A DNA stretch of 62,729 nucleotides, the filler included, from Nitrospinota bacterium (lineage in GTDB: Bacteria; JAUXIQ01), in NCBI GenBank assembly GCA_030620925.1. It is 10 parts of 10 records of this genome, joined end to end, with 100 filler letters (N's around TTAATTAATTAA, not from the genome) between each part and the next. Parts side by side here need not be neighbours in the genome. Positions count along the whole stretch, not along the records: positions 44,512 to 47,172 come from JAUXIQ010000425.1; 9 more parts are not named here. The stretch is one strand, 5' to 3'. The translations under genes were made by a program, and so were the position numbers. This document shows positions 956-57,395 of this stretch, one piece after another; within the stretch, counting starts at the first letter, position 1; each line of letters starts with the position of its first letter. Under the pieces are notes generated by a model. That model saw only the letters and a program-made list of their open reading frames with translations, was not told the origin of the DNA and did not search any database.

Positions 956-2440
956 TCAGGCAAGCAGGTTACGGATGAGCGTTTTTGCATCGGGAGAGGA
1001 CTCAATGAGCTCTTCCACGAGCATTTGAGTGCCTCTGGTCGGTTCGGCCATCATTATGCGCTTGACGTTGTTATCGTCCAGGCTGAAGGAGATTGAGTCC
1101 CAGTTGATACCGAAGATTTCCTTGCCGTATTTTCTTTGACAGGTGCCCCGGAAGTAAGCCCTGGTATCGCTGGGAGGGTCTGTAATGGCAGGCGCTATAT
1201 CACTGTCGTCCAGAACTCTGCGCACCTGCCCCCGCTTGTCGAGGAGATGATAAAGCCCTCTGGCCTTGCGAATATCGTGGTATTGCAGGTCCAGCATGGC
1301 CACTCGAGGGTTATCCCAGGCCAGAGAGTGCCTGCTCATGTAATTTGTTATAAGATTTTTCTTGATGATCCAATCGATCTCCTGACACAGTTCCATGGGC
1401 TCCTTTTCCAGCTTGCCCAACACGTACTCCCATTCCTTCAGCACCATGGGTGCGAATTTGTCGTCCTCTTGTTGCTGGCAATATTTCACTGCCAGGTCCA
1501 GGTACTCTTTCTGTATTTCCACCGCGGTGAAATAGTTTCCCTTGGTTAACTTCAGTTTTTTCTTGCAGGTGGTATCGTGAGAGACCTGAACCATAGCTTT
1601 TACGGGGCTGTCCAGACATAATTCCTTTTGTATGAAGTTGTCTTCTATCATGGAGAGCATGATGGCGGTAGTGCCCGCTTTGAGCAGGGTGGTGTATTCG
1701 GACATGTTGGAATCGCCCACGATGACGTGAAGGCGACGGTATTTGGTTCTGTCGGCGTGTGGTTCGTCTCTGGTGTTGATGATGGGGCGTTTGGCCATGG
1801 TATCCAGGCCCACGTCGGTCTCGAAGAAATCGGCCCTCTGCGATATTTGGTAGTCCACCGGGGGTGCATTGTTTTCGGAGCCCACTTTCCCCGCACCGGT
1901 GAAAACCTGCCGGGTGACCAGGAAGGGAATGAGCTCCCTGCTGATCTTATCGAACGGGATTTCTCTGTCCATGAGATAGTTTTCATGGTATCCGTAGCTG
2001 TTCCCCTTCTGGTCGCTGTTGTTTTTGTAGACCAGGATGGCCTTGTCCTGGGGCAGGAGAGCGTTGGACCGCGTTAAACTGATTTCGAGAATGTTTTCAC
2101 CGGCTTTTTCGTAGCGCACGAGGTCGATGACATTGGAACATTCGGGCGTGGAGTATTCCGGGTGAGCGTGGTCCACGTAATACCGGGCTCCGTTGGTGAG
2201 GGTCTTGTTGAGGGCGGTGTTTTCCTCCTGGGTGGGAGGAGTTTGTTCATGGTCGATGATGAAGCCGCGGGCGTCGTTAAGGGGGCTTTCCTGGTCGTAG
2301 TCCCATAAGATATTACTGGATTGAGGGGGCAAGAAGTTGTTTACCAGCAGGATGGAATTGGTAATCGGGTCGAAGTCCGGTTCACCGGGTACTATTATTC
2401 CGTATTCGGTTTCAGTACCCATTATTTTTTCTACGGCCAT
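956..2440 (-). CDS. dop: Pup deamidase/depupylase Dop (PafA family)
   Basis: MGTETEYGI, NGARYYVDHAHPEYSTPEC, TRDEPHAD, RRLHVIVGD, DLQYHDI and TRAYFRG motifs. Confidence 0.92.
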   Translation of the reverse strand: MAVEKIMGTETEYGIIVPGEPDFDPITNSILLVNNFLPPQSSNILWDYDQESPLNDARGFIIDHEQTPPTQEENTALNKTLTNGARYYVDHAHPEYSTPECSNVIDLVRYEKAGENILEISLTRSNALLPQDKAILVYKNNSDQKGNSYGYHENYLMDREIPFDKISRELIPFLVTRQVFTGAGKVGSENNAPPVDYQISQRADFFETDVGLDTMAKRPIINTRDEPHADRTKYRRLHVIVGDSNMSEYTTLLKAGTTAIMLSMIEDNFIQKELCLDSPVKAMVQVSHDTTCKKKLKLTKGNYFTAVEIQKEYLDLAVKYCQQQEDDKFAPMVLKEWEYVLGKLEKEPMELCQEIDWIIKKNLITNYMSRHSLAWDNPRVAMLDLQYHDIRKARGLYHLLDKRGQVRRVLDDSDIAPAITDPPSDTRAYFRGTCQRKYGKEIFGINWDSISFSLDDNNVKRIMMAEPTRGTQMLVEELIESSPDAKTLIRNLLA

Positions 2441-2493
2441 ACTCTTTTCTCGATATGCAGCCTGCAGGAGGTAGACCTATTGTTTCACCATCT

Positions 2494-4320
2494 CTACAGG
2501 TACTGCCCCGGTTCTATGTTCTCTATATTTTTGGCCAGGGGCTCTGCGCCGCGTATGAGGGTTCGGATGTTGACTATCCGCTCTCCTTTCTTGCCCGCTA
2601 TCTTGGACCAATCGTCGGGATTGGTGGTATTGGGTAGGTCTTCGTTTCCCTTGAATTCGTCTTTCACGGCGTCCTCGAGGTCCGAGTATTTAATGCCCTT
2701 TTCCCCGCCGGTTATGTAGCGTTTGAGGGCGTTCTTCTTGGCCCTGGAGACTATGTTGTGGATCATGGCCCCGCTTGAGAAGTCCTTGAAGTAGAAGATT
2801 TCCTTATCTCCCCGGGCGTAGGTTACTTCCAGAAACTGGTTCTGCTCCGAGGTGCTGTACATATAATCGGCCACCTTTTTTATGAGATGTTCAACGGTGG
2901 CCTGCCGGTCGTTATCGAAATTCGAGAGAACCTCCTCATGTATGGGAATCTCAGGGACCAGGTACTTGCTTAAAATATCTACTGCCCCCACCTTATCGGG
3001 GCGGTCTACCTTTATCTTGAGATCGAGCCTGCCCGGGCGCAAAACTGCCGGGTCTATGAGATCCTGACGGTTGCTGGCGCCTATCACTATAACGTTTTTA
3101 AGTGCTTCCAGGCCGTCAATTTCGGAGAGGAACTGGGCCACCACAGTCACCTCCATGTCTGAGGAGATGCCTGAACCCCTGACTCTGAACAGGGAGTCCA
3201 CTTCATCGAAGAAGACGATTACCGGGGTGTTTTCGTCTGCGCGCTCCTTGGCTTTTTTGAAAACCTCTCTGATTTTGTGCTCCGTCTCGCCGACGTACTT
3301 GTTCAGGAGTTCCGGCCCTTTGATGTTGAGGAAGTAGCTTTTGGCTTTCTTCCCCGTCTTGGCTTCTATCCTGTTGGCGAGGCTGTTGGCTACAGCCTTG
3401 GCTATCATGGTCTTTCCGCAGCCGGGAGGTCCGTAAAGGAGTATCCCTTTGGGGGGCAGGAGCTGGTGCTCCTCGAATTCTTTGGGGTACAGGTAGGGAA
3501 GTTCGATGCCGTCCTTGAGGGTCTCTATCTGCTCGTCCAGGCCTCCGATGTCTTTGTAAGTGACCTCTGGTATCTCTTCCAACACCACCTCTTCCACTCT
3601 GGATTTGGGCAGCCGCTCGAAAGCGTAACTGGAGGAGGGGTCTATGAGGAGCATGTCTCCGATTTTGAGCTCCATTTCGATGAGCATCCCTGAGAGATGG
3701 ACCACCCGTTCTTCATCGGCCCGGCAGATTACGATGGCCCGGTCGCCTTCCAGAAAGTCTTTTATCTGCCCCGCTTCGCCCTCGGTTATAAAATCCGCGT
3801 AGTCGATGACGTTGTACGCCTCGTTCAGCACCAGTTGCTGCCCTTCCAGGAGGCTTTCGACCTCCACCTTGGAGTGGACGTTTACTTTGATGGTTTTACC
3901 GTCCAGGCACACGTCCACCGTCCCGTCCTTGTTGAAGCGCTTAAATATTGCGTAACTGTTGGGGGGTGAGCAGAGCTTTTCCACTTCCTTCTTCAGCTCT
4001 TCCATCTGCGCTTTCGCTCTGTTAAGAGCGCCGACCAGCCTTTCGTTCTGTTTCCTGCCTTTATGGAGCTGTTCGTTGTTCTGGTGATATTTCCTCTTCA
4101 GCACCTCGAACTCGCTCAGGGTTCGCTGAAGGTGACTCATAAGCTCCTTGCTTTCACCCTCCAGAAACTGCACTTGTTCTTGCAGTTCTCTGATGGTTTC
4201 TTCGTATTCCTTGATACGTTCTTGGAAGGAGGCTTCTGCTTTGGAACTGTGCAGGCTAAATTTTCTCAGTTTGTCTTTCATAAACCCCTTCTTTTCAGGA
4301 CTGTTTCGGTAGTTTTCCAT
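2494..4320 (-). CDS. arc: Proteasome ATPase ARC/Mpa
   Basis: N-terminal coiled coil, OB region, Walker A GPPGCGKT, KGPELLNKYVGE, Walker B VFFDE, PNTTNPDDW and C-terminal GQYL docking motif. Confidence 0.96.
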   Translation of the reverse strand: MENYRNSPEKKGFMKDKLRKFSLHSSKAEASFQERIKEYEETIRELQEQVQFLEGESKELMSHLQRTLSEFEVLKRKYHQNNEQLHKGRKQNERLVGALNRAKAQMEELKKEVEKLCSPPNSYAIFKRFNKDGTVDVCLDGKTIKVNVHSKVEVESLLEGQQLVLNEAYNVIDYADFITEGEAGQIKDFLEGDRAIVICRADEERVVHLSGMLIEMELKIGDMLLIDPSSSYAFERLPKSRVEEVVLEEIPEVTYKDIGGLDEQIETLKDGIELPYLYPKEFEEHQLLPPKGILLYGPPGCGKTMIAKAVANSLANRIEAKTGKKAKSYFLNIKGPELLNKYVGETEHKIREVFKKAKERADENTPVIVFFDEVDSLFRVRGSGISSDMEVTVVAQFLSEIDGLEALKNVIVIGASNRQDLIDPAVLRPGRLDLKIKVDRPDKVGAVDILSKYLVPEIPIHEEVLSNFDNDRQATVEHLIKKVADYMYSTSEQNQFLEVTYARGDKEIFYFKDFSSGAMIHNIVSRAKKNALKRYITGGEKGIKYSDLEDAVKDEFKGNEDLPNTTNPDDWSKIAGKKGERIVNIRTLIRGAEPLAKNIENIEPGQYL

Positions 4321-5406: not shown

Positions 5407-5507
5407 TNNNNNNNNNNNNNNNNNNNNNNNNNNNNNNNNNNNNNNNNNNNNTTAATTAATTAANNNNNNNNNNNNNNNNNNNNNNNNNNNNNNNNNNNNN
5501 NNNNNNN

Positions 5508-7200: not shown

Positions 7201-8058
7201 TTATGCCGTTTTCAATTTTTCCATCAATAACCTTCTTATCCTGCCCGCGGGGAACCGTTTCCCGGTCCAGATCTGAAATGCCAGGTCACCCTGATGAATG
7301 AGCATGCCCAGTCCATCGAGTGTGCGGGCCCCCCTTCGGCGGCACTCTTCCAAAAAAGGGGTTTTCAACGGTGTATAGACTATGTCGCAAACAAGATGAC
7401 GATCATCTATGCCCTCGGGACTTATGGGAAGCTCGTCCCCGCCGCCCATACCCACTGAAGTAGCATTTATAATCAGGTCCACCCCGGGCAGTAACTCCTT
7501 AAGCTCATCATTTTTTAGCGGAACAAATTCTGCGTGGGTGTACGAAAGCCCGGCCTCGAGATGCTTCACCAGGGCTTCTCCCTTCTCCGGCGTCCTGTTA
7601 ATCACCAATATCTCTGAAACTCCCTCCATAGCCAGCTTTACGGCCAGCCCGCGGGCCGCGCCTCCCGCCCCGATCAGCAGCACCCTCTTGCCCCCAACCT
7701 CCTCACCGGCGTCTTCCCTGAGGGAGGCCACGAAACCGGCTCCGTCAGTATTGTAACCCACGACGCGCCCGCCATCAAAATCTATGGTATTCACCGCTTT
7801 GGTCGCAGCAGAAACCGGATCAAGCTGATCCAGATGCTCCAACACGGCCTGTTTGTGGGGAATGGTCACGTTCACACCCTTAACTCCCAGCGCCATCAGG
7901 CCCGACAACGCCGCCTCAATCTCTCCCGGTTTGACCTCAAAGGGTACATAGAACCCCTTAATGCCCAGGTTTCGCAGCGCTTCGTTGTGCATCAGGGGAG
8001 ATAGGGAATGCCCGACCGGATGGCCTATTATCCCCAGCACCAACTGTCCTTCAGCCAT
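7201..8058 (-). CDS. aroE: Shikimate dehydrogenase
   Basis: HSLSP, NVTIPHK, AVNT, NTDG, GAGGAA, NATSVGM, DIVY and GLGMLIHQ motifs. Confidence 0.96.
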   Translation of the reverse strand: MAEGQLVLGIIGHPVGHSLSPLMHNEALRNLGIKGFYVPFEVKPGEIEAALSGLMALGVKGVNVTIPHKQAVLEHLDQLDPVSAATKAVNTIDFDGGRVVGYNTDGAGFVASLREDAGEEVGGKRVLLIGAGGAARGLAVKLAMEGVSEILVINRTPEKGEALVKHLEAGLSYTHAEFVPLKNDELKELLPGVDLIINATSVGMGGGDELPISPEGIDDRHLVCDIVYTPLKTPFLEECRRRGARTLDGLGMLIHQGDLAFQIWTGKRFPAGRIRRLLMEKLKTA

Positions 8059-8114
8059 GGCTTCTCCGGTATTCTCACTTTTCCGTGCCGCCCCAACCAG
8101 TCATAGGCAGCGGT

Positions 8115-9032
8115 TTATCGGAGGGTATCCCGGGTTATGGGATAGTTGCGGAGTACGTTTCCTTCAGTATCGGGTACGGTGATCTTCTGATCGTTGAGAT
8201 TCAGTTCCACTCCCTTGACGTTACCCAAAGTCAAGAGAATTTGCTCTTTCGCCGTCCATACCCTGGTGTCACCGCGAGGAAGGAATATTCTCTCATCCAT
8301 ATCCAATTCGATAATTTTTATTTCCACCCAGGTGCCGGCTATGGCGTGCACCTTTAAGGTGAGCTCCTCCACCGGTTTCCTGCCGGGATACGTCGCCTCC
8401 CTCGAACTATCGGATACCTTTCCCTTCGCACCGCTCCATCGCGCCTGCGGGGAGCTGCGCATTGGAAGTATGGTTAGCTTCTTTGGGAAGTCTCTATCCT
8501 GCAATTGCCTGGGAGGATGAGGCGGACTTACTTCCCCTACCTGTTCACCCGACCCGCCCTTTATCCCGGATTCCTGAGCAGAAGAAATGACCACCGACCT
8601 CGTGCCGCCGGCCTCTTTTCCGGTTTCAACGGCTTTATCGCCGGCTTCATTATCCATCATCTGCATAGCTATTATAACCAATACCACAATGCATACCACC
8701 AGCACTGCGCCGCCTATTATCAGCTTCTTTGCGACCCTCGGTTTTTCCGGCTCAGTCTCCGGTAATTTCTCTGAAACCTTCTCCTCGGGCGTTCCCCCTG
8801 AGCCTGTGGTCTCCTCATAAACCAGCATAACCTCATCGGGATTAAGCCCTATGCATTGTGCGTAGGACCTTAAAAAACCCTTCACAAACGGTTCAGCCGG
8901 AAGAGATTTATAGTCATCCGCTTCCAGTGCTGCAAGAAAACGCAAACTTATCCTGGTAACGTGGGCTACCTCATCCAGGGTAAACCCCCTCAGTTCCCTT
9001 TCCCTCTTGATATATGCACCCACAGATTCCAA
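8115..9032 (-). CDS. rodZ: RodZ-like HTH / transmembrane / DUF4115 protein
   Basis: XRE-like HTH (KRERE..G.TL.EVA..TRI...FVKGFLRSYA), one TM helix, C-terminal LTLGN.KGV; TTG start after AGGAGG. Confidence 0.8.
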   Translation of the reverse strand: MESVGAYIKRERELRGFTLDEVAHVTRISLRFLAALEADDYKSLPAEPFVKGFLRSYAQCIGLNPDEVMLVYEETTGSGGTPEEKVSEKLPETEPEKPRVAKKLIIGGAVLVVCIVVLVIIAMQMMDNEAGDKAVETGKEAGGTRSVVISSAQESGIKGGSGEQVGEVSPPHPPRQLQDRDFPKKLTILPMRSSPQARWSGAKGKVSDSSREATYPGRKPVEELTLKVHAIAGTWVEIKIIELDMDERIFLPRGDTRVWTAKEQILLTLGNVKGVELNLNDQKITVPDTEGNVLRNYPITRDTLR

Positions 9033-9784
9033 AAAAACTACCTCCTGCCCGGCCAGCAATTGATTGCCTAGGGTTCCCGCTCCATAGCTCCTTCCGGGAA
9101 GACAAAAGCCCGAAATATACCACCAAAATATGTTATAAATCTGCGGCTTTCTTCCGATAAGATATTTAAAGTGTTTTCGTGACTATATTTAAATTTTAAC
9201 AGATAAACTTTCTTTTGTCAAAACTCAAAGGGGGTGTAAATAAAAAGTAACATCGTTTGGATATTACCTGTTAATGCCTTTAGGCTCCCTGCCAATACAT
9301 CTGCCTTGCGTAACCGGCGACTTGGTGGTATTCTTATANNNNNNNNNNNNNNNNNNNNNNNNNNNNNNNNNNNNNNNNNNNNTTAATTAATTAANNNNNN
9401 NNNNNNNNNNNNNNNNNNNNNNNNNNNNNNNNNNNNNNGGGACGGAGTGCAGAATCTCGTCTACACTTGCAAATCATGCATCTCACAGAATACTGCCATC
9501 TTGAATTCAGGTCAGTCGCCAGCGTATAGGGAGACTCCAGTATCCTGTGAAGTCCTGAATCGTTAATAGGAGCACCTCGCGGCACACGGGCTCGCCCTGT
9601 TTTGGATTATTACAATTGGCACGAATACAAGATTCGCCCCCACTTGCAGATAACAAAAAGAACGTGCAAATGATTTTTTATTGTCCTTAAATCGCGTTCG
9701 CCTATAATGGTAACTGAAAAATATGGTTAGCCGTTAATCCGGTTAAATCACCGACCTTCAGCGATAAAAAAGCGGGGAGAAAAA

Positions 9785-13554: not shown

Positions 13555-14175
13555 TTAGTATGAAGTTACCTGGAACTGAGCCCTCCTGTTCTTCGTCCAT
13601 ACCTGTTCGTCGTGGCCCGAGGCCAACGGCCTTTCCTCGCCGTAGCTGATTGTATACAGCCGCACGGGATCGATGCCCAGGCCTATGAGATACCTCCTCA
13701 CGCTCATGGCCCGCCTCTCGCCCAGAGCCAGGTTATACTCATCGGTACCCCGCTCGTCGGCATGTCCTTCTACGAGGACTTCGGCCTCAGAGTTTGCCTG
13801 CAACCATTCCGCATTTCCCCTCAGCGTTTTCTTTGCTTGATCAGTAAGCGCTGATTTGTCGAATTCGAAGTTGATCGTCCTCAACACCAGATCGGCGGGA
13901 CTGAACTCTTTGCCTCTCGCCGAAAGCTGAGGGGGTACATCTCTCTCAGACCTCAGGATAGACTCACGAATGCTCTCAGACGTCCCTCCCTTGCCTCCCC
14001 CTTCTCTGCCGGCCATACTCTGTCCTTCGCCTCCTGTACGGCCCCCCTTCTTTGCTGCTCCCGAGGCTGCCCTTTCGCCCTGGCTATCGCTCACCCTCGC
14101 GGGACAACCCGTGAGGAAGAGACCCAATGCCACGAGCAGGACAACTGCTAAAGGAGTAATTACTACATTTCTCAT
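13555..14175 (-). CDS. pal: Peptidoglycan-associated lipoprotein
   Basis: Lipobox LTGC; OmpA-like EGHADERGTDEYNLALGERRA and NRRA. Confidence 0.95.
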   Translation of the reverse strand: MRNVVITPLAVVLLVALGLFLTGCPARVSDSQGERAASGAAKKGGRTGGEGQSMAGREGGGKGGTSESIRESILRSERDVPPQLSARGKEFSPADLVLRTINFEFDKSALTDQAKKTLRGNAEWLQANSEAEVLVEGHADERGTDEYNLALGERRAMSVRRYLIGLGIDPVRLYTISYGEERPLASGHDEQVWTKNRRAQFQVTSY

Positions 14176-14275
14176 GTTACCACGTTCCTCCCTTTAAAAA
14201 CTCAAGTTAAATCGTGAAAGTAAAAACAGACCTTCTCCCTATTCTTGACTTCAAAACCCTCCTCATTATTAAAAC

Positions 14276-15601
14276 TCAATCCCCAAGCCTGGTGGACCAT
14301 GCAGGTGAATAACCGCCTCCCGCCAGCTTTGTTACGGGGTGTTGGCCCGAACCGTCCACCCCCATTATGTATATTTGTGGCGTTCCGTTTCTATCCGAAC
14401 TGAAAGCGATATGACGCCCGTCAGGGGACCACGCGGGGGCCTCGTTATTTCCTGCGTCTTTGGTAAGTCTTTTAAGATCGCTCCCGTCGAGGTTTATTGT
14501 ATATATATTGAACAGCTCATCCCTTCTTCCGGCGAAAGCCAGGCGGTCTCCTCGCGGTGACCATGAAGCCTGGTCGTTGTAATCTCCCAAGTAAGTGATA
14601 CGCTTCGCATTTTTCCCGTCGGCATCCATTACATGAATCTGCGGGAAGCCTGCTCTGGAGGAGGTGAAGGCTATTCTCTTGCCGTTGGGAGACCACGCGG
14701 GCCCTGAGTCGGTCACCCGGTTCTTGGTCAACCGTTTCAGTTTTCCGTCTTTCACTCTGATGAGGTAAATTTCAGCGTTACCGTCCTTGGTCATGACCAT
14801 TGCGATATTCTTCCCATCCGGCGACCAGGCAGGCAACACGTTAAGTCCCTGGGCCAGAGAGAGCGCTCTTCGATCCAGACCGTCTTGATTTATGATGTAC
14901 AGGTCGGGGTTGTTATCGATATAAGAGGTAAAGGCGATCCGCTTCCCGTCAGGAGACCAGGCGGGAGAGAGTACCAGCGACTTATCACCGGTTAGGCGGT
15001 AAACACCGTGCCCGTCGTAGTCCATGATGTACATCTCTTTGTTCTGCCTTTGCTTGGAAACAAAAGCTATCTTGGACCTGAATACCCCCTTCTCACCCGT
15101 GAGCCGGTATGCTATCTCCTCAGAGAGTCGATGGGCTATGGTCCGGTAGTCGCGGGGGTCGCCGGAATATTTCACTCCTATTATCCTTTTACCTCTATCC
15201 ACGTCGAATAGCTCACTTTTAAGCACCAGCTGGCCGCCATCCATATAGATTTCGCCCTTGAGCAGAGCCACAGCTCCCAGGGCGCCCCACTCACTGAAAT
15301 TTGTCTTCCCTTTCGCCCTATCCTCCCGTTCCTGCTCCTGGACGAATCCGTCCTTATCGATAACCTTAAAGAACCCGGAAAACTCCAGATCAGCCCTCAC
15401 AACCCTGCTCATGGTGGAGGTGAGCTGGATATAAGCCCCGGAACGGCCGCGTCCGACTGTAAAATCTGGCACGGCGACTTCTATCCTGCCCGAGCCTGCG
15501 GTTTTTAAATCCAGAAATACCTCCGGACCCTTACCTTCAGAATCACTGAAAGCAAAAACCGAGATAACCGATATTATCGCGATGATAAGCCTTATATACA
15601 A
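14276..15601 (-). CDS. tolB: Tol-Pal beta-propeller protein (start uncertain; ORF extends to 15670)
   Basis: TolB_N domain plus repeated PAWSPDG motifs; position in tolQRAB-pal. Confidence 0.93.
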   Translation of the reverse strand: MYIRLIIAIISVISVFAFSDSEGKGPEVFLDLKTAGSGRIEVAVPDFTVGRGRSGAYIQLTSTMSRVVRADLEFSGFFKVIDKDGFVQEQEREDRAKGKTNFSEWGALGAVALLKGEIYMDGGQLVLKSELFDVDRGKRIIGVKYSGDPRDYRTIAHRLSEEIAYRLTGEKGVFRSKIAFVSKQRQNKEMYIMDYDGHGVYRLTGDKSLVLSPAWSPDGKRIAFTSYIDNNPDLYIINQDGLDRRALSLAQGLNVLPAWSPDGKNIAMVMTKDGNAEIYLIRVKDGKLKRLTKNRVTDSGPAWSPNGKRIAFTSSRAGFPQIHVMDADGKNAKRITYLGDYNDQASWSPRGDRLAFAGRRDELFNIYTINLDGSDLKRLTKDAGNNEAPAWSPDGRHIAFSSDRNGTPQIYIMGVDGSGQHPVTKLAGGGYSPAWSTRLGD

Positions 15602-15608
15602 TGTGCGG

Positions 15609-16358
15609 TTAACCCTCCCCGGAATATTCGAATCCGAAATGCACACGTAACTCTTCCCCTTCAAACTCATGGGGTAGTGGGGGCAGGGGACCGGCCTTCA
15701 TAATGGCCATAGCCGCCGACCCGTCCAAAAATTCATCCCCGGATGATTTCTCTATTTTCAAACCCTCGATGCTTCCGTCTCTCTGCACCTTGAAAAAGAT
15801 CACCACCCGCCTGCTCCCCTTTCCCTCGAACTCACTATATACCGGGTCCCAGTGCTCCGCTATTCTCCTTTGCATTATGGACAGGTAGTAGGAGTAGGGG
15901 AAATCCACATCTTCGAGGGATAGACTCCCCACCCCTTTGGGGCCCAGGCTGGCGGTAGTAGTCGTAGAAAATTCCGTGAGTTTTTCCTTCTGCTCTTTTC
16001 CTTTCGTCTCCAGTTTAGGTTGTTTCTGCTGTTGCCGATTCCTGCTTTTTTTGAACCTCTCCTTTTTACGGCGCTCAGGTTTTTTTTCTGGCTCTTTTTT
16101 CACCTTCGGCTTCTCGGGAAGAGGGGCAGCCGGAGGTTTCTTCACGGCAGCTTGCTTAGTTTCCGACGATTCTTTTTTCTTATTGGGCTGAGGTTTGCTG
16201 ACCTCCTTCTTCTCCGCGGGATTTCGGGGAAGCTCCACGAAGCTCACCCTGTATACATCCTTGGGCTTTTCCCTCTTTTCAGACACCATGGGAACGGTGA
16301 ATATAATGCCCAGGATTATGAGATGGGCTACGAGAGAATAGAGGATGAGCTTCCCCAT
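15609..16358 (-). CDS. tolA: TolA/TonB family protein
   Basis: N-terminal TM with SxxxH, Lys/Pro-rich linker, C-terminal SSG...D..A..A...A.PLPPLP. Confidence 0.8.
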   Translation of the reverse strand: MGKLILYSLVAHLIILGIIFTVPMVSEKREKPKDVYRVSFVELPRNPAEKKEVSKPQPNKKKESSETKQAAVKKPPAAPLPEKPKVKKEPEKKPERRKKERFKKSRNRQQQKQPKLETKGKEQKEKLTEFSTTTTASLGPKGVGSLSLEDVDFPYSYYLSIMQRRIAEHWDPVYSEFEGKGSRRVVIFFKVQRDGSIEGLKIEKSSGDEFLDGSAAMAIMKAGPLPPLPHEFEGEELRVHFGFEYSGEG

Positions 16359-16460
16359 AACGTTCCCTTCCTCTGGGCTTCTCTGTTAACTATCATAAAA
16401 AAAAGCGGAGAGCTCGACTAAAAGGCCCTTCGCCCATCTCTCCAGCCTCAGTCTGAATTT

Positions 16461-16865
16461 TCAATCCATCGGCTCGGTGACCATACCCAATTGATAGAAA
16501 CCAGCCCGCCTGATTCTAGACATGGTTTTCACCACGGTTCCGTATTTCACGTCGCGGTCAGCCTTTATAAATACCTCCATGTCGGGATTGATCCGGCTTA
16601 AACGCTGTAGTTTTTCCTCCAGTTCGTCGAAGCTCACCCGTCTATCTCTGAAATAAATACGGTTATTCGTTGATACAGTTATAATCAAGCTTTCACTGAG
16701 GTCATGCACTTCCCCTTTCTCCCTGGGGAGGTCCACCGGAATGCCCTGAGTAAGCATAGGGGCGGTGACCATAAAGATGACCAGCAACACCAGCATCACA
16801 TCCACCAGAGGAGTAACGTTTATTTCAGAGAGAACTGGAGTCGTCCTCTCGCTCAATCCCTTCAA
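16461..16865 (-). CDS. tolR: TolR/ExbD
   Basis: INVTPLVDVMLVLLVIFMVTAP motif. Confidence 0.92.
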   Translation of the reverse strand: MKGLSERTTPVLSEINVTPLVDVMLVLLVIFMVTAPMLTQGIPVDLPREKGEVHDLSESLIITVSTNNRIYFRDRRVSFDELEEKLQRLSRINPDMEVFIKADRDVKYGTVVKTMSRIRRAGFYQLGMVTEPMD

Positions 16866-16897
16866 AGGCTGCCTTCCTCTCTAATGGGGCGGATCGG

Positions 16898-17596
16898 TCA
16901 GTATTCTTTAACGAAGTTTCTTTCTACAATGCTTACGAATTCCGTATTAAAATTATCCATCTCGCTGCCGACAACTTTGGCCTTATTGATGTAATAGTTA
17001 TAGCTGATGACTGCAGGTATAGCCACGGCCAGACCCGCTGCAGTAGCTATCAATGCCTCTGAGATTCCAGGGGCCACGGCTCCGATGCTGGCGGTAGTCC
17101 GCATCCCCAGCCCCCTGAAGGCGTTCATTACACCCCATACCGTGCCGAAAAGGCCGATGAAAGGCGTTGCGCTTCCTGCAGTAGCAAGAAAAATCAGGTA
17201 CTTCTCAAATGTGATCATCTCCTGATTAGCCTTAACCATAATGGTTCTGGTTATCACCTGAACCTCTTTTGGCGTAATTCCCACCCCACTCTTTCGGGCT
17301 GTGCCCGAAGTGGGATTGTCGTCTCTACTTTCTCGCTGAAATCCCCGAAGGGCGTTGTATCCCACAACGTATAGCCTGGCCAAATGGCTCTCATCGAGAG
17401 ATTTGCTATGGGCGTAAATGCTCGTCAGGTTATTGCTGGAACTAAAAATATTCATAAACCTGCGCGTCTGTGCCTCCGAGGTGCGCAGATATAACAATTT
17501 CTGAATTATTATGGCCCAAGTACTCACCGAGAAAAAGAGAAGCACTATGAGCACCAATTTTCCCGCGAGCCCTATCTGGAGGATTAATTCGTTCAC
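16898..17596 (-). CDS. tolQ: TolQ/ExbB proton channel
   Basis: PFIGLFGTVWG and GISEALIATAAGLAVAIPA motifs. Confidence 0.93.
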   Translation of the reverse strand: MNELILQIGLAGKLVLIVLLFFSVSTWAIIIQKLLYLRTSEAQTRRFMNIFSSSNNLTSIYAHSKSLDESHLARLYVVGYNALRGFQRESRDDNPTSGTARKSGVGITPKEVQVITRTIMVKANQEMITFEKYLIFLATAGSATPFIGLFGTVWGVMNAFRGLGMRTTASIGAVAPGISEALIATAAGLAVAIPAVISYNYYINKAKVVGSEMDNFNTEFVSIVERNFVKEY

Positions 17597-24448: not shown

Positions 24449-24578
24449 AATCGAGGGGCTGATTCCCCGGGGCGGANNNNNNNNNNNNNNNNNNNNNNNN
24501 NNNNNNNNNNNNNNNNNNNNTTAATTAATTAANNNNNNNNNNNNNNNNNNNNNNNNNNNNNNNNNNNNNNNNNNNNTC

Positions 24579-25406
24579 TCCTTTTTCTTCAACGTGCACA
24601 ACAATTTCTTCGAGGAAGTGGCCAAGTTCAGAGCCGCCCGGCGGATGTGGGCGCGCATCATGCGGGAACGCTTCGGCGCGCAGAGCGACGAGTCGTTAAA
24701 GCTTCGCTTCCATACCCAGACCGCCGGCAGCACCCTCACCGCCCAGCAGCCGGACAACAACGTTGTCCGGGTCGCCATCCAGGCGTTGGCGGCGGTTATG
24801 GGAGGCACCCAGTCCCTGCACACCAATTCCCGCGACGAGGCGCTGGCGCTGCCTTCGGAGGACTCGGTGCGTATCGCCCTGCGCACCCAGCAGATAATAG
24901 CCCACGAGAGCGGCGTCGCCGATACCATCGACGGCATGGCCGGCTCCTACCTGATAGAGTCGCTCACCGATGAGATCGAACTGCGGGCGATGGAGTACAT
25001 CACCAAGATAGACGACCTGGGCGGCATGCTGTCGGCCATAGAAGACGGTTACGTGCAGCGCGAAATCCAGGAGAGCGCCTATCAGTATCAGAAGCAGGTG
25101 GAAAGCGAGGAGCAGGTGGTGGTGGGGGTGAACAGGTACCCGTTGGAAGAAGAAGAGCACATGGGGCTGCTGAAAATCGATCCCGCCATCGAAGAGAACC
25201 AGAAAGAGAAGCTGGGCTTACTTCGCGGTGAGCGAGAGGGCAAGAAGGTAGAAGGCCACCTGGACAAGCTGAAAGAGATCGCCAGGGAAGACGGCAACGT
25301 GGTGCCTTGTATATTGGAATGCGTGCGCAGCCTGGCCACCCTGGGAGAAATCTCCGACGCCCTGCGCGAGGTCTACGGCGAATACAAAGAAAACATCACC
25401 ATTTGA
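24579..25406 (+). CDS. Methylmalonyl-CoA mutase family large subunit, C-terminal part (5' truncated)
   Basis: [39 protein letters not shown] and ATLGEI motifs. Confidence 0.93.
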
Positions 25407-27342: not shown

Positions 27343-27442
27343 NNNNNNNNNNNNNNNNNNNNNNNNNNNNNNNNNNNNNNNNNNNNTTAATTAATTAANN
27401 NNNNNNNNNNNNNNNNNNNNNNNNNNNNNNNNNNNNNNNNNN

Positions 27443-33519: not shown

Positions 33520-33744
33520 TCTTGATTGGACGTTTCACAGCTGCTCTTCTCTGATACCCTTTCTAAAGCGATCTCAAGTGGGAGAGAATGGTTTTCCTAT
33601 AGCGATTTGCGACGGGAAGAAAAACCCGTAACCGCTGCGTTGAANNNNNNNNNNNNNNNNNNNNNNNNNNNNNNNNNNNNNNNNNNNNTTAATTAATTAA
33701 NNNNNNNNNNNNNNNNNNNNNNNNNNNNNNNNNNNNNNNNNNNN

Positions 33745-36306: not shown

Positions 36307-36687
36307 NNNNNNNNNNNNNNNNNNNNNNNNNNNNNNNNNNNNNNNNNNNNTTAATTAATTAANNNNNNNNNNNNNNNNNNNNNNNNNNNNNNNNNNNNNN
36401 NNNNNNAGAACATTATATGGGCCGTTGGGTGTCGGTGGGATGGTCCCGCGGCGCGGGACACCCCGCCGACTCTGCATCCTGTCATTCTGAACGGAGTCTC
36501 GCCACACGCCGGACCGGCGCGCCCATGAAGAAACCGGTGATTGATAGTATTGCATACGCCCCTGCCACGTACCTTCCGGGTAGCACGGAAATATTTTTTA
36601 GTGTTTGACAGGTTTTTTAAAAAAGTGTATATTTCTTGTGATGTTATGTGAGTTTGTTAATCTATCTCTTAAAAGTGGAGAAGGAAT

Positions 36688-44411: not shown

Positions 44412-44512
44412 NNNNNNNNNNNNNNNNNNNNNNNNNNNNNNNNNNNNNNNNNNNNTTAATTAATTAANNNNNNNNNNNNNNNNNNNNNNNNNNNNNNNNN
44501 NNNNNNNNNNNA

Positions 44513-45352
44513 ATCCTCAAAGAAATCGCCCTCCACCGCGCCGCCCGTCGCATGTGGGCCAAGATAATGCGTGAGCGCCTGGGCGCCAAGGACCCCAGGA
44601 ACTGGGCTTACATGCACGTCGGCGGGGCCATGAGCGGCTACTACAGCACCAGCGCACAACGCCCCCTCAACAACCTCACCCGAGCCGTGCTGGGCGGAGT
44701 GGCCGCCGCCATGGTGGGGGATAACCCCAGCGTTGAGCCCCCCTACGACGAGCCCCTGGGCCTGGGCTGGAGCCTGGAAGCGCAGCAGCTCTCAGAAGAC
44801 GCGGCCCGCATCATCCAGTACGAGGCCCGGCTCAAAGACGTAATAGACCCTTTCGCCGGCTCATATTACATGGAGTCAAAGACCAACCAGATCGAGGAAG
44901 AGGCCTGGGAAATAATCGAGAAGCTCGATTCCCTGGGCGGCTCCGTGAGCGCCATAGAGCAGGGCTACATGCAGCAGGAGATAGCCCGCAGCGCCTACCA
45001 GTTCCAGAAGGAGGTGGAGTCAGGCGAGCGCATAGTGGTCGGCGTAAACAGCTTCCTGGGCGAAGAGGAACTGGATGTCGTCACCAGCCGGCTGGTCCAG
45101 CATCCTTACGACCCCGATAAACGGGTGCAGGCAGAAGAGAAGCAGAAGAAGAATCTGGAGCAGGTTAAACGCAGCCGGGACGATAAGGCCGTTACCTCAG
45201 CCCTGCGATCGGTCAAAGCCGCCGCTGAGGACGAGAGCAAAAACGTCATCCCGCCCGTTCTGGAAGCGGTGAAAGCCTACGCCACCCTGGGCGAGATATG
45301 CGACGTGTTCCGCGAAGTCTTCGGCGAATACCAGGGCTACGGCTCTATATGA
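44513..45352 (+). CDS. Divergent B12-dependent acyl-CoA mutase large subunit (5' truncated)
   Basis: [29 protein letters not shown] and ATLGEI retained; core motifs altered. Confidence 0.85.
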   Translation: MLKEIALHRAARRMWAKIMRERLGAKDPRNWAYMHVGGAMSGYYSTSAQRPLNNLTRAVLGGVAAAMVGDNPSVEPPYDEPLGLGWSLEAQQLSEDAARIIQYEARLKDVIDPFAGSYYMESKTNQIEEEAWEIIEKLDSLGGSVSAIEQGYMQQEIARSAYQFQKEVESGERIVVGVNSFLGEEELDVVTSRLVQHPYDPDKRVQAEEKQKKNLEQVKRSRDDKAVTSALRSVKAAAEDESKNVIPPVLEAVKAYATLGEICDVFREVFGEYQGYGSI

Positions 45353-45370
45353 TGGATGGGTGCGGCCGCA

Positions 45371-46039
45371 TCAGAGCTTGAGCTCGTAAGTCCTGCCCGG
45401 CTCTGAGGGGTTTACCACGAGGTCAAGCGCCTCGCGGATGATTTTCTTCTGCACCTCCGCATCCTCCGGCATGCCCAGGGGGTTTCCCAACCCGTAATCC
45501 ACCGGCCACAGCGCCCTGGGAGGGCGGGCCATGCGGGATTGCTCCGGCTCGACGGTTATGAGCACGGTGGGCACTCCCGTCATCTCCACTCCCCTCTGTA
45601 TCGAGACGACCGCCCGATGGCAGAGAGGTCAGCCCGCGGTCATGAACACGATGTCCGCCTTGTTGTTCTTGATCTCTTCGGCTATCAGGGGGAGGGTGTT
45701 ATCCCTCAGCTCCCTGAACGACTGCGTGAACCCCATGGCGATGTGCGTGTCGGTTATGCCTCCGATAAGCCTCTCTTCGGTCAGCTCCCGGAGCCGGTCT
45801 ATGGGGAAGAGGACGTTTACGTCCCTGTCCCCGTCGGCATGGTCGTAGTGGGTATGGGTGATCATCAGTTTCGAGCTGTCAGCGTCGCCGGGTATGATCC
45901 TGATGGAGGTGTCGCCCTCGGTGTCGTAAGGTTCCTGGTCGTCCAGGTGCACGCCGGTGCTGCTCACCATGCACACCCTGCTCACGCCGAGCTCCCCTTC
46001 GAAAGGGGTATACGGAATACACAATCTGGAGATTTCCAT
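45371..46039 (-). CDS. PrdB/GrdB-like selenoprotein, 222 aa, Sec at UGA 45629-45631 (UxxC)
   Basis: ORFs 45629-46039 and 45371-45589 are in frame; read-through gives VFMTAG-U-PLCHRAVVSIQR, matching PrdB TAGUxxCHR; also GDTS.R.IP, YD, FPIDRLREL. Confidence 0.88.
45591..45628 (-). promoter_or_regulatory. Putative bacterial SECIS stem-loop
   Basis: Directly after the UGA: CCUCUCUG pairs with CAGAGGGG, AUCG with CGAU, and the apical loop begins GGU about 18 nt downstream. Confidence 0.65.
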
Positions 46040-46052
46040 CGGGAACGGACCT

Positions 46053-46547
46053 CTAAAGAGTTTTGAGAACTTTTATCAGCTCTGCGTTGTCGGGCTGTGT
46101 GCTGATGTCGTGGATGTCGATGTAGCGGATAATGCCCTCCTTATCCACGATGAACAGCGCCCGCTCGGTTATCCCTTCTTCCCGCAGGATGCTGTATTTC
46201 ACGGCGGCGTATCCGTGGGGCCAGAAATCGCTCAGCAGCGGATAGGATAGGGTTCCCATGGATTTGGCCCACGCTTCGCTGGTGGGGACGTTGTCGGCGC
46301 TTATACCCAACACCTGGGTATCGTACCTGTCAAACTCGGAAAGGTCTTCCTCGTATGCAGGCATCTGCACCGTTCAGACGGGTGTGAATGCGGCGGGCAC
46401 GAAGGCCAGAACCACGTTCTTTTTGCCCTTGTAATCGCTCAAAGAGATGCTCTTCTGCGGCTGGCCCTTGCCCGCGGTATCTCCCGTGGCGGGTAAAGTG
46501 AAATCAGGGGCCGGGTCGCCGACTTTCAACTGCATGGTAGCTCTCAT
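46053..46547 (-). CDS. Selenocysteine peroxiredoxin (AhpE/AhpC-TSA type), 164 aa, Sec at UGA 46374-46376
   Basis: From ATG 46547 after [24 protein letters not shown]...[19 protein letters not shown]...LLSDFWPHG...[11 protein letters not shown] occupies the peroxidatic position of PxxxTxxC. Confidence 0.9.
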
Positions 46548-46716
46548 TATTCCTCCTTCTTTCGGCCTCAGCCTTAGGAAATGAATGTTTTATATTTTCG
46601 GGGACCATTAAATTGACGTGAATTATCTGTAATATATAACTTGTGGATATAATTGCACACAGATAGTCATATATAAACGAAAAAAGATCGGGCGGTGTGC
46701 ACAATTGTTCGGAGGG

Positions 46717-46804
46717 TGGTGCCGAAGCGGGGATTCGAACCCCGACGAGGATAAACCTCACTAGACCCTGAATCTAGCGCGTCTGCCAGTTCCGCCACTT
46801 CGGC
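46717..46804 (-). tRNA. tRNA-Leu(CAG)
   Basis: GCCGAAG acceptor stem, CTAGA-TTCAGGG-TCTAG anticodon arm, long variable arm, TTCGAAT, CCA. Confidence 0.96.
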
Positions 46805-46939
46805 ACTATCGGTATCGGCTTTTCTGAGAGGCGATGCTTCATTACGCCGCCGACACAATTTTAGTTCTCCCATCCTGTTATGTCAATAGCTACGGGTCTA
46901 AATCGGACATAAAGAGCCATTTTAAATTTTCGGAGCAGG

Positions 46940-47105
46940 GGTTGGTCTACCCACCCCCCTTGCTTAAGCAGTCTCCGAACCTACATAATGCGTATAAAAT
47001 CAATAGTTTACGCTGTGCGGCCCGGCAACCGTTAGTTATCCGTAAACCCTTTATAATCAAGTGTTTAGCGTCCAAAACCCCCTGAATTCAGGGGTTGCTT
47101 GAACA
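46940..47105. repeat. MITE-like dispersed element, copy 1
   Basis: Imperfect TIRs TGCTTAAGCAGTCTCC / GGGGTTGCTTGAACA; diverged inverted copy at 47273-47396. Confidence 0.55.
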
Positions 47106-47272
47106 CAAAAATATTAACCATCGCGCCTGCCGCGTGAGGTTTCGCCATTAAACTCAGATGATAATAGGAAGANNNNNNNNNNNNNNNNNNNNNNNNNNNN
47201 NNNNNNNNNNNNNNNNTTAATTAATTAANNNNNNNNNNNNNNNNNNNNNNNNNNNNNNNNNNNNNNNNNNNN

Positions 47273-47396
47273 GCTTAATTTTATAGGGTTTTTATAGGAT
47301 TAACGGTATTATGCGCACATGGTGTAAACCATTGAATATTAAACCATTTTAAGCGATTGGAGGTTGCTTAAGCAACGGGGGTGGGTAGGAGCAACC
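47273..47396. repeat. MITE-like dispersed element, copy 2 (partial, at contig start)
   Basis: Reverse complement shares CTACCCACCCCC.TTGCTTAAGCA, TCAAT.GTTTAC, ACCGTTA and AAACCCT with 46940-47060. Confidence 0.55.
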
Positions 47397-47588
47397 GCCT
47401 GCCGCGGCAGGCGGTCCGGTAGAGGGGATTAAGGGGAGGGGGATTTTGAAAGCGCAAAAGAACACGGGCTTGCTAGGGTAGGCGAGATTCTTCGCTGCAC
47501 TCAGAATGACACGATGCGGAGTCGTAGGGGCGGTCCCGCGTGTGGCGGGAATGAACCCCTTTCGGGCAGGGCAAGCCCTGCCCCTACG
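47396..47588. repeat. REP-like palindrome cluster
   Basis: Inverted copy of 39885-39990 (GAGATTCTTCGCT..AGAATGA; GAGGGGATTAAGGGGAGGGGG) plus GTAGGGGCGG..GCCCCTAC. Confidence 0.65.
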
Positions 47589-47612: not shown

Positions 47613-47960
47613 TTAGCAGCAATTGCCCCGGTCGGACTCTTTTTGCTCAGGAGCACAATCCCCGACGCTCCTCTCCAGCTCTATCGAGCAGCAGCTCGAC
47701 GACTCCTTGGCACCCATGGCGGACCTGATGACGGCCGTGGCGCAGCCCACGCCTGCCTGCACCGCAATAGCCCCCTCCGGACAGTTCATGGCGCAGGCCC
47801 CGCATTCCATGCATGCGTCCCGGTTTTCGACCCTGATATTCCCGTTATCCGCAGCCAAAACCGCGTGCGGGCAGACCGCCATGCACATGCCGCAGCCGGT
47901 GCATTTTTCTTTGTCGACCTGTAGAGTAACCACGTCCTTGAGGTAAACCAGTTGTCCCAT
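47613..47960 (-). CDS. hgcB: Mercury methylation ferredoxin HgcB
   Basis: Two CxxCxxCxxxC motifs including CMECGAC, GVGCA, and C-terminal vicinal cysteines. Confidence 0.93.
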   Translation of the reverse strand: MGQLVYLKDVVTLQVDKEKCTGCGMCMAVCPHAVLAADNGNIRVENRDACMECGACAMNCPEGAIAVQAGVGCATAVIRSAMGAKESSSCCSIELERSVGDCAPEQKESDRGNCC

Positions 47961-48689: not shown

Positions 48690-49859
48690 TCAGGCGATGA
48701 ACCGCGATACCAGCCAGAGACATAACCCCGCCCCACCGGTCGTTATTTCCAGGGGCACGGCCCATCTCATCTCTCTCCTGACACCTGAAAGGGAGGTGTA
48801 GGTGGAAGCGCCGGTAAAATTCATAGCCATGTAGGCCGCGAAGGCCGGAACCAGCAAAAACCAGCCCAGGATTTCGAAAAGTCCTGCCAAACCGCTCAAA
48901 CTTCCCGCACGGAAAAGGGCCAGTACCGCCGCTGTTATCAGGCCCATGCTGATCCCTTTCAGGGAGAAAGCGCGGCCCGGCAGCCAGGGCAACAGAAGCT
49001 GGGTCAAAACGCCACCCGCCGCCAGCGCACATAACAGGGCGAGCACGGCGAACAGACCGTAATTCAAGGCGTTGGCCCAGTATCCGGCAGGTCCGCCCAG
49101 CCCGCCCAGGAAGAAGAAAGCGGGGAGTATGAGGGCGTACCATTTCAAAACCAACACCACCTCAATGGGCACCAGCTCCATTCTCTCCCGGGTGGTGAAC
49201 GTCTTCAGTCTCATTTCCGGCGCCGCTTTAAAGCCCGCATCGATGAAAGCGGGTAAATCCCTGGCAAGAACAGGCCCGTATATCACCCTGAATCCGAAAA
49301 GTTTCTTTACCTGGTGCGCCGCCACCCCAGGGGCCCCTAACTGGGGCACTATCAGCTCCCTGTGAGAAACCACCTGCGCCAGGCCGCTGGACTCTATGCG
49401 TCGGACAAGCTCCTCCGTCCCGAAGGTCCCCTTCCCCGCCGCACACCAGACGTTTATGCCCTTGGTGTCCAGGACCAGTATCCATGCGTCGCGGCCCGGC
49501 AGGGCCACGCGTAGATGATCAAAACTCATCTTGTAGTTGGCCGACACCATGACGGGGGACTTGTCGTCGGGGTTTCCCAGGGCGTAAAGGCCGGGGTCCA
49601 CCGTGTAGTGCATGCGGGCAACTCCCCAGCGGGACTTAATACCGCCCCGGCGGTCGGCCCTCACAAGAGAAGATGAGACCTGAGGCACGGTTCCGGCGGG
49701 AGTCTCAACAGCGCCCGCCACGAAGGGCTGCTCCAGGCTGGGAAGGCTATCCTGAGCCTCACCCTCCGGGGGACAACAGGCGCCGCCCACCGACTCCTCC
49801 GCCGCCGAACAGGAAACATCAGCGATCTTCTGTGTTTCCCTGCTCCTTTCATCGCTCAT
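48690..49859 (-). CDS. hgcA: Mercury methylation corrinoid protein HgcA
   Basis: Cap-helix GINVWCAAGKGTFG, ANYKMSFD, PQLGAPGV, C-terminal TM helices ending NFTGASTYTSLSGVRREM. Confidence 0.97.
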   Translation of the reverse strand: MSDERSRETQKIADVSCSAAEESVGGACCPPEGEAQDSLPSLEQPFVAGAVETPAGTVPQVSSSLVRADRRGGIKSRWGVARMHYTVDPGLYALGNPDDKSPVMVSANYKMSFDHLRVALPGRDAWILVLDTKGINVWCAAGKGTFGTEELVRRIESSGLAQVVSHRELIVPQLGAPGVAAHQVKKLFGFRVIYGPVLARDLPAFIDAGFKAAPEMRLKTFTTRERMELVPIEVVLVLKWYALILPAFFFLGGLGGPAGYWANALNYGLFAVLALLCALAAGGVLTQLLLPWLPGRAFSLKGISMGLITAAVLALFRAGSLSGLAGLFEILGWFLLVPAFAAYMAMNFTGASTYTSLSGVRREMRWAVPLEITTGGAGLCLWLVSRFIA

Positions 49860-57294: not shown

Positions 57295-57395
57295 CNNNNN
57301 NNNNNNNNNNNNNNNNNNNNNNNNNNNNNNNNNNNNNNNTTAATTAATTAANNNNNNNNNNNNNNNNNNNNNNNNNNNNNNNNNNNNNNNNNNNN

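Follow-up and report, generated by a model that had tools for sequence, protein, structure and literature searches.

A conserved gene pair for an AhpE-type peroxiredoxin and a PrdB-like protein, both predicted selenoproteins, in a Nitrospinota bacterium

The DNA analyzed in this study (hereafter, the window) is a stretch of 62,729 nucleotides (nt) from a Nitrospinota bacterium (GenBank assembly GCA_030620925.1), which carries on its minus strand two co-oriented open reading frames (ORFs), spaced 13 nt apart and each with one in-frame TGA. The upstream ORF is predicted to encode an AhpE-type peroxiredoxin (Prx) with a single selenocysteine (Sec, U), and the downstream ORF a UxxC selenoprotein similar to PrdB, the selenoprotein subunit of clostridial D-proline reductase. 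The Prx and PrdB-like genes are a well supported linked pair, found together in most genome loci sampled; the mechanism by which the PrdB-like protein would recycle the Prx is a proposal. Their coordinates and motifs, reported in a preliminary description of this DNA, were all correct and are as follows.

46547..46053 (-): predicted gene for the AhpE-type 1-Sec peroxiredoxin, 164 amino acids (aa), TAG stop included (ORF and Pfam AhpC-TSA match)
46376-46374 (-): UGA of the Prx gene, predicted Sec U58 at the peroxidatic position, within P-A-A-F-T-P-V-U-T-V-Q (homologue alignment)
46039..45371 (-): predicted gene for the PrdB-like UxxC selenoprotein, 222 aa, TGA stop included (ORF, TIGR04483, full-length cysteine homologues and AlphaFold2 model)
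45631-45629 (-): UGA of the PrdB-like gene, predicted Sec U137, within F-M-T-A-G-U-P-L-C-H-R (homologue alignment)
46552..46558 (-): Shine-Dalgarno-like AAGGAGG, 4 nt upstream of the Prx start codon (read from the sequence)

Two in-frame TGA codons at predicted selenocysteine sites

Beyond its TGA, each frame stays open, for 106 codons in the Prx gene and 85 codons in the PrdB-like gene, and the translation across the TGA still matches its family (Pfam AhpC-TSA, 8.2e-35, for the Prx; NCBIfam PrdB model, 7.1e-50, residues 10-217, for the PrdB-like protein). This family-like continuation, which the preliminary description had pointed out, indicates that the TGAs are not chance stops. Homologues carry either TGA or a cysteine (Cys) codon at the same positions: among the genome loci described below, of the 74 that contain a Prx, 43 have TGA and 31 have Cys at the Prx site, and of all 80, 58 have TGA and 22 have Cys at the PrdB-like site. 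A lack of Cys or Sec at these sites among homologues, for which we checked, was not found. In an alignment of 20 PrdB-like homologues, the 12 full-length sequences showed G-C-x-x-C-H-R (ten of them G-C-P-L-C-H-R), and all seven truncated database homologues aligned stopped at the Gly directly before the TGA. The window product itself is recorded in public gene calls as a 136-aa fragment, the kind of break-up by standard annotation that had been anticipated. Canonical PrdB, too, has its TGA at the position corresponding to that of the PrdB-like gene. When the genomes of five pair-bearing relatives were searched, selA scored over its cut-off in all five (of selA, selB, selC and selD, the search covered selA). 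Contigs from runs of three other studies span both UGAs at 90-99% likeness, and no change was observed at the six UGA bases among the matches listed (40 of 103).

The pair lies on a short contig of a metagenome-type assembly, a setting in which the TGAs might be real stops, sequencing errors or pseudogene lesions. With TGA at the same positions in 43 Prx and 58 PrdB-like loci, conserved downstream frames, hairpins specific to the Sec forms (see below) and unchanged sites among the listed matches from other studies, we find such an origin scarcely credible. Judged from their sequences, both genes are thus predicted to be selenoprotein genes, and the proposal of Sec at both TGAs stands.

The peroxiredoxin resembles one-cysteine AhpE

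The Prx matched AhpC-TSA (PF00578) over the entire profile (positions 1-124 of 124) with 119.9 bits against a cut-off of 26. The peroxidatic site P51-x3-T55-x2-U58 is present, and P51, C/U58 and R129 are invariant columns in a family alignment of 30 sequences (alignment A5), in which the peroxidatic column is the sole invariant Cys/Sec column. As had been noted earlier, the window Prx contains no Cys whatsoever and hence no resolving Cys. One-cysteine peroxiredoxins require an outside reductant; because it has no resolving Cys, the window Prx would likewise need an outside partner. To our knowledge, most bacterial AhpE-type enzymes outside actinomycetes have no known reductant of this kind.

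A sequence search of the PDB returned Mycobacterium tuberculosis AhpE as the best solved relative (1.3e-28, residues 3-146). The top seven matches (1.3e-28 to 2.2e-27) comprised six M. tuberculosis Rv2238c/MT2298 entries and one AhpC/TSA-family entry, all of AhpE type, and the next family followed at 9.5e-22. The window Prx therefore ranks by similarity nearest to the one-cysteine AhpE type, to which it appears to belong. It has in common with AhpE (PDB 1xvw, 4x1u) the P-x3-T-x2-C/U site, a similar size and the absence of a resolving Cys, but its predicted catalytic residue is Sec and its linked candidate partner is PrdB-like rather than mycoredoxin-1/mycothiol, the outside reductant on which M. 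tuberculosis AhpE depends (PMC6178380). PrxU of Eubacterium acidaminophilum likewise has Sec at the peroxidatic position; since the window Prx scored 63.9 bits against a cut-off of 270 with the PrxU model (NF040737), the two are of different Prx subfamilies.

The pair is kept across at least seven phyla

More than 591 genome stretches encode PrdB-like relatives; the genomic neighborhood of the PrdB-like gene was compared in the best 80 of them, with a Prx homologue defined by E <= 1e-20 in the fetched flanks. A Prx homologue was present in 74 of the 80 loci and lay within 200 nt of the PrdB-like gene in 65, which bears out the conserved adjacency claimed in the preliminary description. Three gene orders were observed, the Prx gene being upstream on the same strand in 57 loci, downstream on the same strand in 4 and downstream on the opposite strand in 13. 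The states of Prx and partner, in that order, were U,U in 42 loci, C,U in 15, C,C in 16 and U,C in 1, so that the pair is also kept in the 16 loci with Cys in both proteins. Six loci lack a Prx; in two of them the contig is shorter than 1.8 kb, and in another the flank on one side extends for 1 kb. The loci are labelled Chloroflexota (mostly Ktedonobacteria), Bacillota (Neobacillus, Mesobacillus, Anaerobacillus and others), Myxococcota, Acidobacteriota, Methylomirabilota, Dormibacterota and Eremiobacterota; the Prx/PrdB-like pair is kept across at least seven phyla. Clustering of all ORFs within 5 kb revealed no third conserved gene family, the next clusters consisting either of pieces of the two genes, read antisense or from beyond the TGA, or of genes particular to a lineage and present in no more than 12 loci. 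One Bacillus contig (L050) carries two PrdB-like copies about 5 kb apart (3027-3716 and 7923-8612), the first beside a full Prx and the second beside a partial Prx match.

These data bear on whether the two proteins are independent, with an adjacency that reflects shared regulation through an oxidative-stress promoter or through a common selenium supply or SelB dependence. Both are redox proteins, selenoprotein genes are often clustered (PMC13188914, 'Selenoprotein operon'), and Sec/Cys switching in the two proteins is not correlated (see below), all of which would fit independence. However, the adjacency holds in the 16 Cys-Cys loci, where there is no selenium link, the 13 loci with the genes on opposite strands cannot share one transcript, and the adjacency extends over at least seven phyla, in which the remaining neighbors are unrelated. 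We therefore regard independence as unlikely.

A second sample, of 80 metagenome loci, agreed with the genome loci. Fifteen of these scored best with the window protein, and 9 of the 15 hold a Prx; two of the 15 are doubtful, with scores of only about 130 bits, and of the remaining Prx-less loci, three are short or cut. Neither Prx nor PrdA was found nearby in 13 SAR202-type loci, most of them on contigs of 1-3 kb, or in 28 further loci, most of them low-scoring. The SAR202/Chloroflexi-type PrdB-like selenoprotein (L119-L130, L152, L184; P0047-P0079) is extended at its N terminus by about 30 residues, appears in databases as 172-aa fragments and represents another orphan branch. Ocean surveys have counted nearly equal numbers of Prx and PrdB selenoproteins, 43 and 42 (PMC1088965) and 253 and 235 (PMC2398784); the idea that these counts reflect the pair was discarded, as none of the 13 SAR202-type loci (contigs mostly 1-3 kb) has a Prx.

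The PrdB-like protein stands apart from canonical PrdB

The PrdB-like protein scored 169.7 bits (7.1e-50) with the NCBIfam PrdB model TIGR04483, below the equivalog cut-off of 300. With the GRDB profile (PF07355) it scored 20.7 bits, below the gathering threshold of 22, residues 56-135 aligning to the C-terminal end of the profile. Because many PrdB-like homologues carry a precomputed PF07355 match, the protein can be assigned by sequence, as a probable member, to the wider GRDB superfamily. U/C137, C140, H141 and R142 are invariant in 31 PrdB-like sequences. The AlphaFold2 model is an alpha/beta structure (predicted local distance difference test, pLDDT, 95.4; predicted template modeling score, pTM, 0.91), in which U137 lies between strand 130-135 and helix 138-152 and the motif opens that helix. 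Searches of the PDB with this model gave nothing at E <= 0.001 by Foldseek and only generic Rossmann-like/LacI-type matches at background level by VIA-align (best Z, 9.1); a PDB sequence search gave a single hit (0.075), to a thioredoxin-like CxxC region.

The PrdB model was also run on 301 genomes of one phylum. A true PrdB class scored 305-433 bits and occurred in 18 of the 301 genomes, a middle class scored 138-166 bits in 5 genomes, and GrdB-size proteins scored about 80-115 bits. PrdB proteins encoded beside PrdA share 39.6-40.6% identity with the window protein across 196-211 residues and have TGA at the same position, within G-U-G-T-C-H-R; U137-P-L-C140 of the window protein aligns with U-G-T-C. 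In a FastTree tree of 110 rows (three identical rows merged; L116 without a hit), the 80 loci and the window protein fell into one group with a Shimodaira-Hasegawa-like (SH-like) support of 90, below the mark of 95. A clade of canonical plus fused PrdB (100) and a GrdB outgroup (100) were both apart from this group. The window protein joined Myxococcota sequences (88), a join that is unsure because both are long branches.

The surroundings differ as well. Canonical prdB adjoins prdA in 24 metagenome loci and 4 genome loci; a Prx was found in none of these 24 metagenome loci, where PrdA lies beside a high-scoring canonical PrdB, and within 1.5 kb in none of the 18 canonical or fused PrdB genome loci. 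Conversely, PF09338 (GrdE/PrdA) was found in none of five pair-bearing genomes, nor did the search of these five give any sign of Stickland metabolism. As the same search was over its cut-off in 103 of the 301 genomes of one phylum, it sees the family where it is present. The preliminary description had stated that the pair lacks prdA/grdE; none is near the pair on its contig, a local absence that covers 2.6 kb only, and the five relatives extend the statement to other genomes. An adjacency unique to the window with a prdA partner elsewhere, an outcome that we also checked, is not what these searches found, given 74 of 80 loci with the pair and no PF09338 match in the five genomes.

The best NCBIfam match of the window protein is PrdB, sources name its relatives 'D-proline reductase PrdB', and the organism's sequence examined was the window, not the full genome, so that an ordinary D-proline (Stickland) reductase PrdB with PrdA elsewhere in the genome might be considered. 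Its score (169.7 bits, with a cut-off of 300 and a true PrdB class at 305-433), the separate tree group, the contrast between 0/5 pair-bearing genomes and 103/301 control genomes for PF09338, and the regular adjacency of canonical prdB to prdA make this very improbable.

Two further sets of PrdB-type sequences were noted among the genomes. Six loci (L101-L106; genomes G201, G090, G168, G131, G233 and G171) have PrdB-type matches of 305-330 bits with a TGA in frames of 596-684 aa; these open frames may be fused PrdB forms, and they group with canonical PrdB in the tree. Five others (L107, L108, L110, L111 and L112) are stand-alone PrdB-like genes with one TGA, scoring 115-166 bits and encoding proteins 30-34% identical to the window protein; no Prx was found within 1.5 kb of them, and three of their genomes have GrdE-type matches.

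RNA hairpins downstream of the UGA codons

Candidate hairpins follow both UGAs. They were compared by hand with the criteria for a bacterial selenocysteine insertion sequence (SECIS) in PMC13188914, section 5, in which the published model has a spacing of 16-37 nt.

45591..45628 (-): SECIS-like stem-loop of the PrdB-like gene, with an 8-pair lower stem, an upper stem with one bulged U, and apical loop GGUC 17 nt past the UGA
46338..46350 (-): proximal small hairpin of the Prx gene, 4 pairs, loop GACCU, 27 nt past the UGA (fold)
46303..46321 (-): distal hairpin of the Prx gene, 7-8 pairs, loop GGUGU, beginning 52 nt past the UGA (RNAalifold consensus, columns 56-74 of alignment A2)

The PrdB-like stem-loop fits the published criteria in its GGUC loop and 17-nt spacing. 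The 45-nt post-UGA segment folds at -19.0 kcal/mol (z, -2.08; 9 of 200 shuffles equally good), and the whole 60-nt fold is no better than shuffles (z, -0.66). In other lineages, hairpins occur at the same place with a different spelling, and RNAalifold found no common structure, the hairpin register shifting among lineages. The difference in post-UGA folding energy between Sec forms and Cys forms is modest (-9.9 vs -8.05 kcal/mol; p, 0.018).

In the Prx mRNA, the loop and 27-nt spacing of the proximal hairpin fit the published model. This hairpin is moderately kept, with 69% of cells able to pair across 25 Sec-type sequences vs 54% when shuffled, and three of its four pairs show changes on both sides. 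An alternative 6-pair register of it was rejected, since 48.7% paired is the same as shuffled. The distal hairpin is much better kept: 96% of 200 cells pair across the 25 Sec-type sequences, and pair 58-72 is GC in 12, AU in 11 and GU in 2. The mean fold of this segment is -11.0 kcal/mol in Sec forms vs -4.8 kcal/mol in Cys forms (p, 3.6e-12, for sequences that are not independent). The distal hairpin of the window Prx itself folds at -8.7 kcal/mol (z, -2.66), and the 90-nt post-UGA segment forms a branched fold at -33.3 kcal/mol (z, -3.63). The spacing of the distal hairpin, 59 nt, is outside the 16-37 nt of the published model. The Prx mRNA may thus carry an unusual two-hairpin signal for Sec insertion, with a conserved apical hairpin 59 nt from the UGA. 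The SECIS check suggested for both UGAs hence gave a divided result, in which the PrdB-like hairpin fits the model and the proximal Prx hairpin fits in loop and spacing with weak conservation, but the best-kept Prx hairpin lies outside it.

Genomic context and other features of the window

The window consists of joined draft or bin contigs, and genes across a spacer are not proven neighbors. The contig of the pair is one piece of it, 2661 bp in length (44512..47172). The neighbors of the pair and the spacers are as follows.

46804..46717 (-): tRNA-Leu(CAG), upstream of the pair, a true neighbor on the same contig
44552..45352 (+): methylmalonyl-CoA-mutase-type fragment, convergent, downstream of the pair, a true neighbor on the same contig
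5408-5507, 9339-9438, 24477-24576, 27343-27442, 33645-33744, 36307-36406, 44412-44511, 47173-47272 and 57296-57395: nine spacers, in each of which a 12-base linker with stops in six frames is flanked by 44 N on either side

The tRNA gene and the mutase-type gene are those that had been described as bounding the pair. An Rfam scan of 44500-47500 detected only the tRNA, and a terminator scan of the pair's contig found none. The single promoter-like site on the contig, a sigma-70-like sequence with 11/12 matches, lies ahead of the tRNA (46858-46886 (-)). Between tRNA-Leu and the Prx start there is an AT-rich stretch with imperfect inverted repeats (46623-46683 (-)), which could be an operator. 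Pieces of the contig recur at 90-99% likeness in contigs of runs labelled as marine sediment or cold seep metagenomes; the best run contains 46% of the sampled words of the contig, and no run spans all of it. There was no RNA run among the 24 runs with contig matches.

On the next contig, hgcB (47616-47960 (-); 114.1 bits vs a cut-off of 99) and hgcA (48693-49859 (-); 450.6 vs 275 bits), the genes for mercury methylation, were identified. The window hgcB has the Cys form of its site, G-V-G-C, which is G-V-G-U in some species (PMC13188914). Genes of a Pup-proteasome system (Dop, 579.6 bits; proteasome ATPase, 708.6 bits) were found together with a Tol-Pal cluster and PilC (959-4320 (-) and 13558-17596 (-)), which suggests a Gram-negative lineage with pupylation. 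Two different methylmalonyl-CoA-mutase-family fragments, each cut by a contig end, are present (24594-25403 (+) and 44552-45349 (+)).

Discussion

The linkage of the two genes and the chemistry of their predicted active sites suggest that the PrdB-like UxxC protein might be the dedicated recycling partner of the 1-Sec Prx, our preferred reading, which we consider about as likely to be right as wrong. The two genes would then form a two-protein, selenium-based peroxide-reducing unit. U58, the only redox residue of the Prx, would reduce a hydroperoxide and become a selenenic acid; the selenolate of U137 in the partner would attack the oxidized U58 to form an intermolecular Se-Se bond (Se-S in Cys forms); and C140 would resolve this bond, freeing the reduced Prx and leaving an internal Se-S bond in the partner. 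In proline reductase, PrdB is held to finish in this selenide-sulfide form as well. Since the pair has no further conserved neighbor, the internal Se-S bond of the partner is proposed to be re-reduced by a reductant of general use in the cell, such as thioredoxin. In this scheme we infer physical contact between the two proteins, the path of the electrons from one to the other, the kind of peroxide reduced and the reductant at the end of the chain. Complex prediction with natural Cys-form homologues (alignments A7 and A6) gave no answer, with a score of 0.00 vs a mark of 0.32. A broader claim, which we offer more tentatively and regard as possible rather than probable, is that the pair represents a new class of peroxiredoxin system, in which the PrdB fold, known only from Stickland reductases, was taken over to resolve and recycle a 1-Sec/1-Cys AhpE-type Prx as its dedicated partner, acting via an intermolecular selenenyl-selenide.

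Several observations weigh against recycling of the Prx by the PrdB-like protein. Beyond UxxCHR, the F-P-x-D-R-L-R-E block and many other canonical PrdB residues are kept; a disulfide relay alone would not need them, and PrdB-type substrate chemistry may therefore be kept. PrdB-like genes also occur without a Prx nearby, in three genome loci with full 6-kb flanks (L010, L014 and L031) and in one metagenome locus (L159). Correlated Sec/Cys switching was not shown: on the PrdB-like tree, the Prx changes once and the partner at least 8 times, with 1 independent pair. With no third gene conserved, a candidate reductant of the partner was not found by linkage. Finally, no sel gene matched among the 54 window ORFs scanned.

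An alternative reading is that the PrdB-like protein is the main enzyme, a bond-cleaving reductase of a small substrate that uses PrdB-type selenol chemistry, with the Prx as a relay or as a guard of its selenol against peroxide. Apart from the retention of PrdB residues outside the redox motif, this reading draws on the PrdB-like subfamilies that have neither Prx nor PrdA nearby (13 SAR202-type and 5 intermediate-scoring loci), which imply that stand-alone PrdB-like proteins seem able to work in other settings. On the other hand, the complete peroxidatic site of the Prx, P-x3-T-x2-U with the Arg, is invariant in alignment A5, the pyruvoyl-protein gene (PF09338) was found in 0/5 genomes, and there is no third conserved gene that could bind a substrate. 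We consider a leading role of the PrdB-like protein improbable, though worth keeping in mind.

A role of the PrdB-like protein in recycling the Prx would have parallels in known systems. AhpC-AhpF and AhpC-AhpD are dedicated peroxiredoxin reductase systems, in which the CxxC-type neighbor recycles the Prx. In these, as in the Prx/PrdB-like loci (74/80, with U/C-x-x-C invariant), a Prx gene adjoins the gene of a CxxC-type redox protein. Unlike AhpF, which is a flavoprotein, or AhpD, the window partner has a predicted PrdB/GrdB-like fold, both window proteins can carry Sec, and recycling is only proposed. From PrdB, the 26-kDa selenoprotein subunit of clostridial D-proline reductase, which is about 40% identical over about 210 residues and has Sec at the same G-U-x-x-C-H-R position and the F-P-x-D-R-L-R-E block in common with it, the window protein differs in scoring under the TIGR04483 cut-off, in its separate tree group and in having no PrdA beside it but a linked Prx instead.

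Both window genes fit families listed in the selenoproteome catalogues of Zhang, Gladyshev and co-workers, namely 'Prx, TxxU' and 'proline reductase PrdB, UxxC' (PMC1088965, PMC2398784, PMC1794560, PMC5029168 Table 3, PMC9312934, PMC13188914). In their accessible text, these catalogues handle the two families separately, retain the name proline reductase and state no Prx-PrdB pair; PMC1794560 Table 3 gives 'peroxiredoxin (3), proline reductase' for Anaeromyxobacter dehalogenans. The accessible part of a 2026 review gives as selenoprotein operons grdA-grdB, prdB-prdC, frh/hdr, Prx with SelW-like and Prx-like with AhpD-like genes, and not the Prx/PrdB-like pair (PMC13188914). No description of this pair was found in the literature searched, which included few subscription journals, so that its absence from print is unproven. 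The preliminary description had put forward an undescribed selenium redox module; this holds for the pairing within that literature, but not for the two families, which are already catalogued selenoproteins. Both genes belong to known selenoprotein families; with its proposed recycling role, the conserved Prx/PrdB-like unit represents a new form of the known arrangement of a peroxiredoxin and a dedicated reductant.

A conserved and exclusive gene partner provides a directly testable candidate for the reductant of AhpE-type enzymes. If the PrdB-like protein does recycle the Prx, many genes of non-fermenting bacteria from soil, sediment and the Bacillaceae that are annotated as 'D-proline reductase PrdB' would be antioxidant genes, and a widespread annotation would be corrected. 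One branch of the PrdB/GrdB superfamily, to which no solved structure could be matched, would also gain a function, and the natural U/U, C/U, C/C and U/C combinations would constitute a system for comparing Se-Se, Se-S and S-S chemistry.

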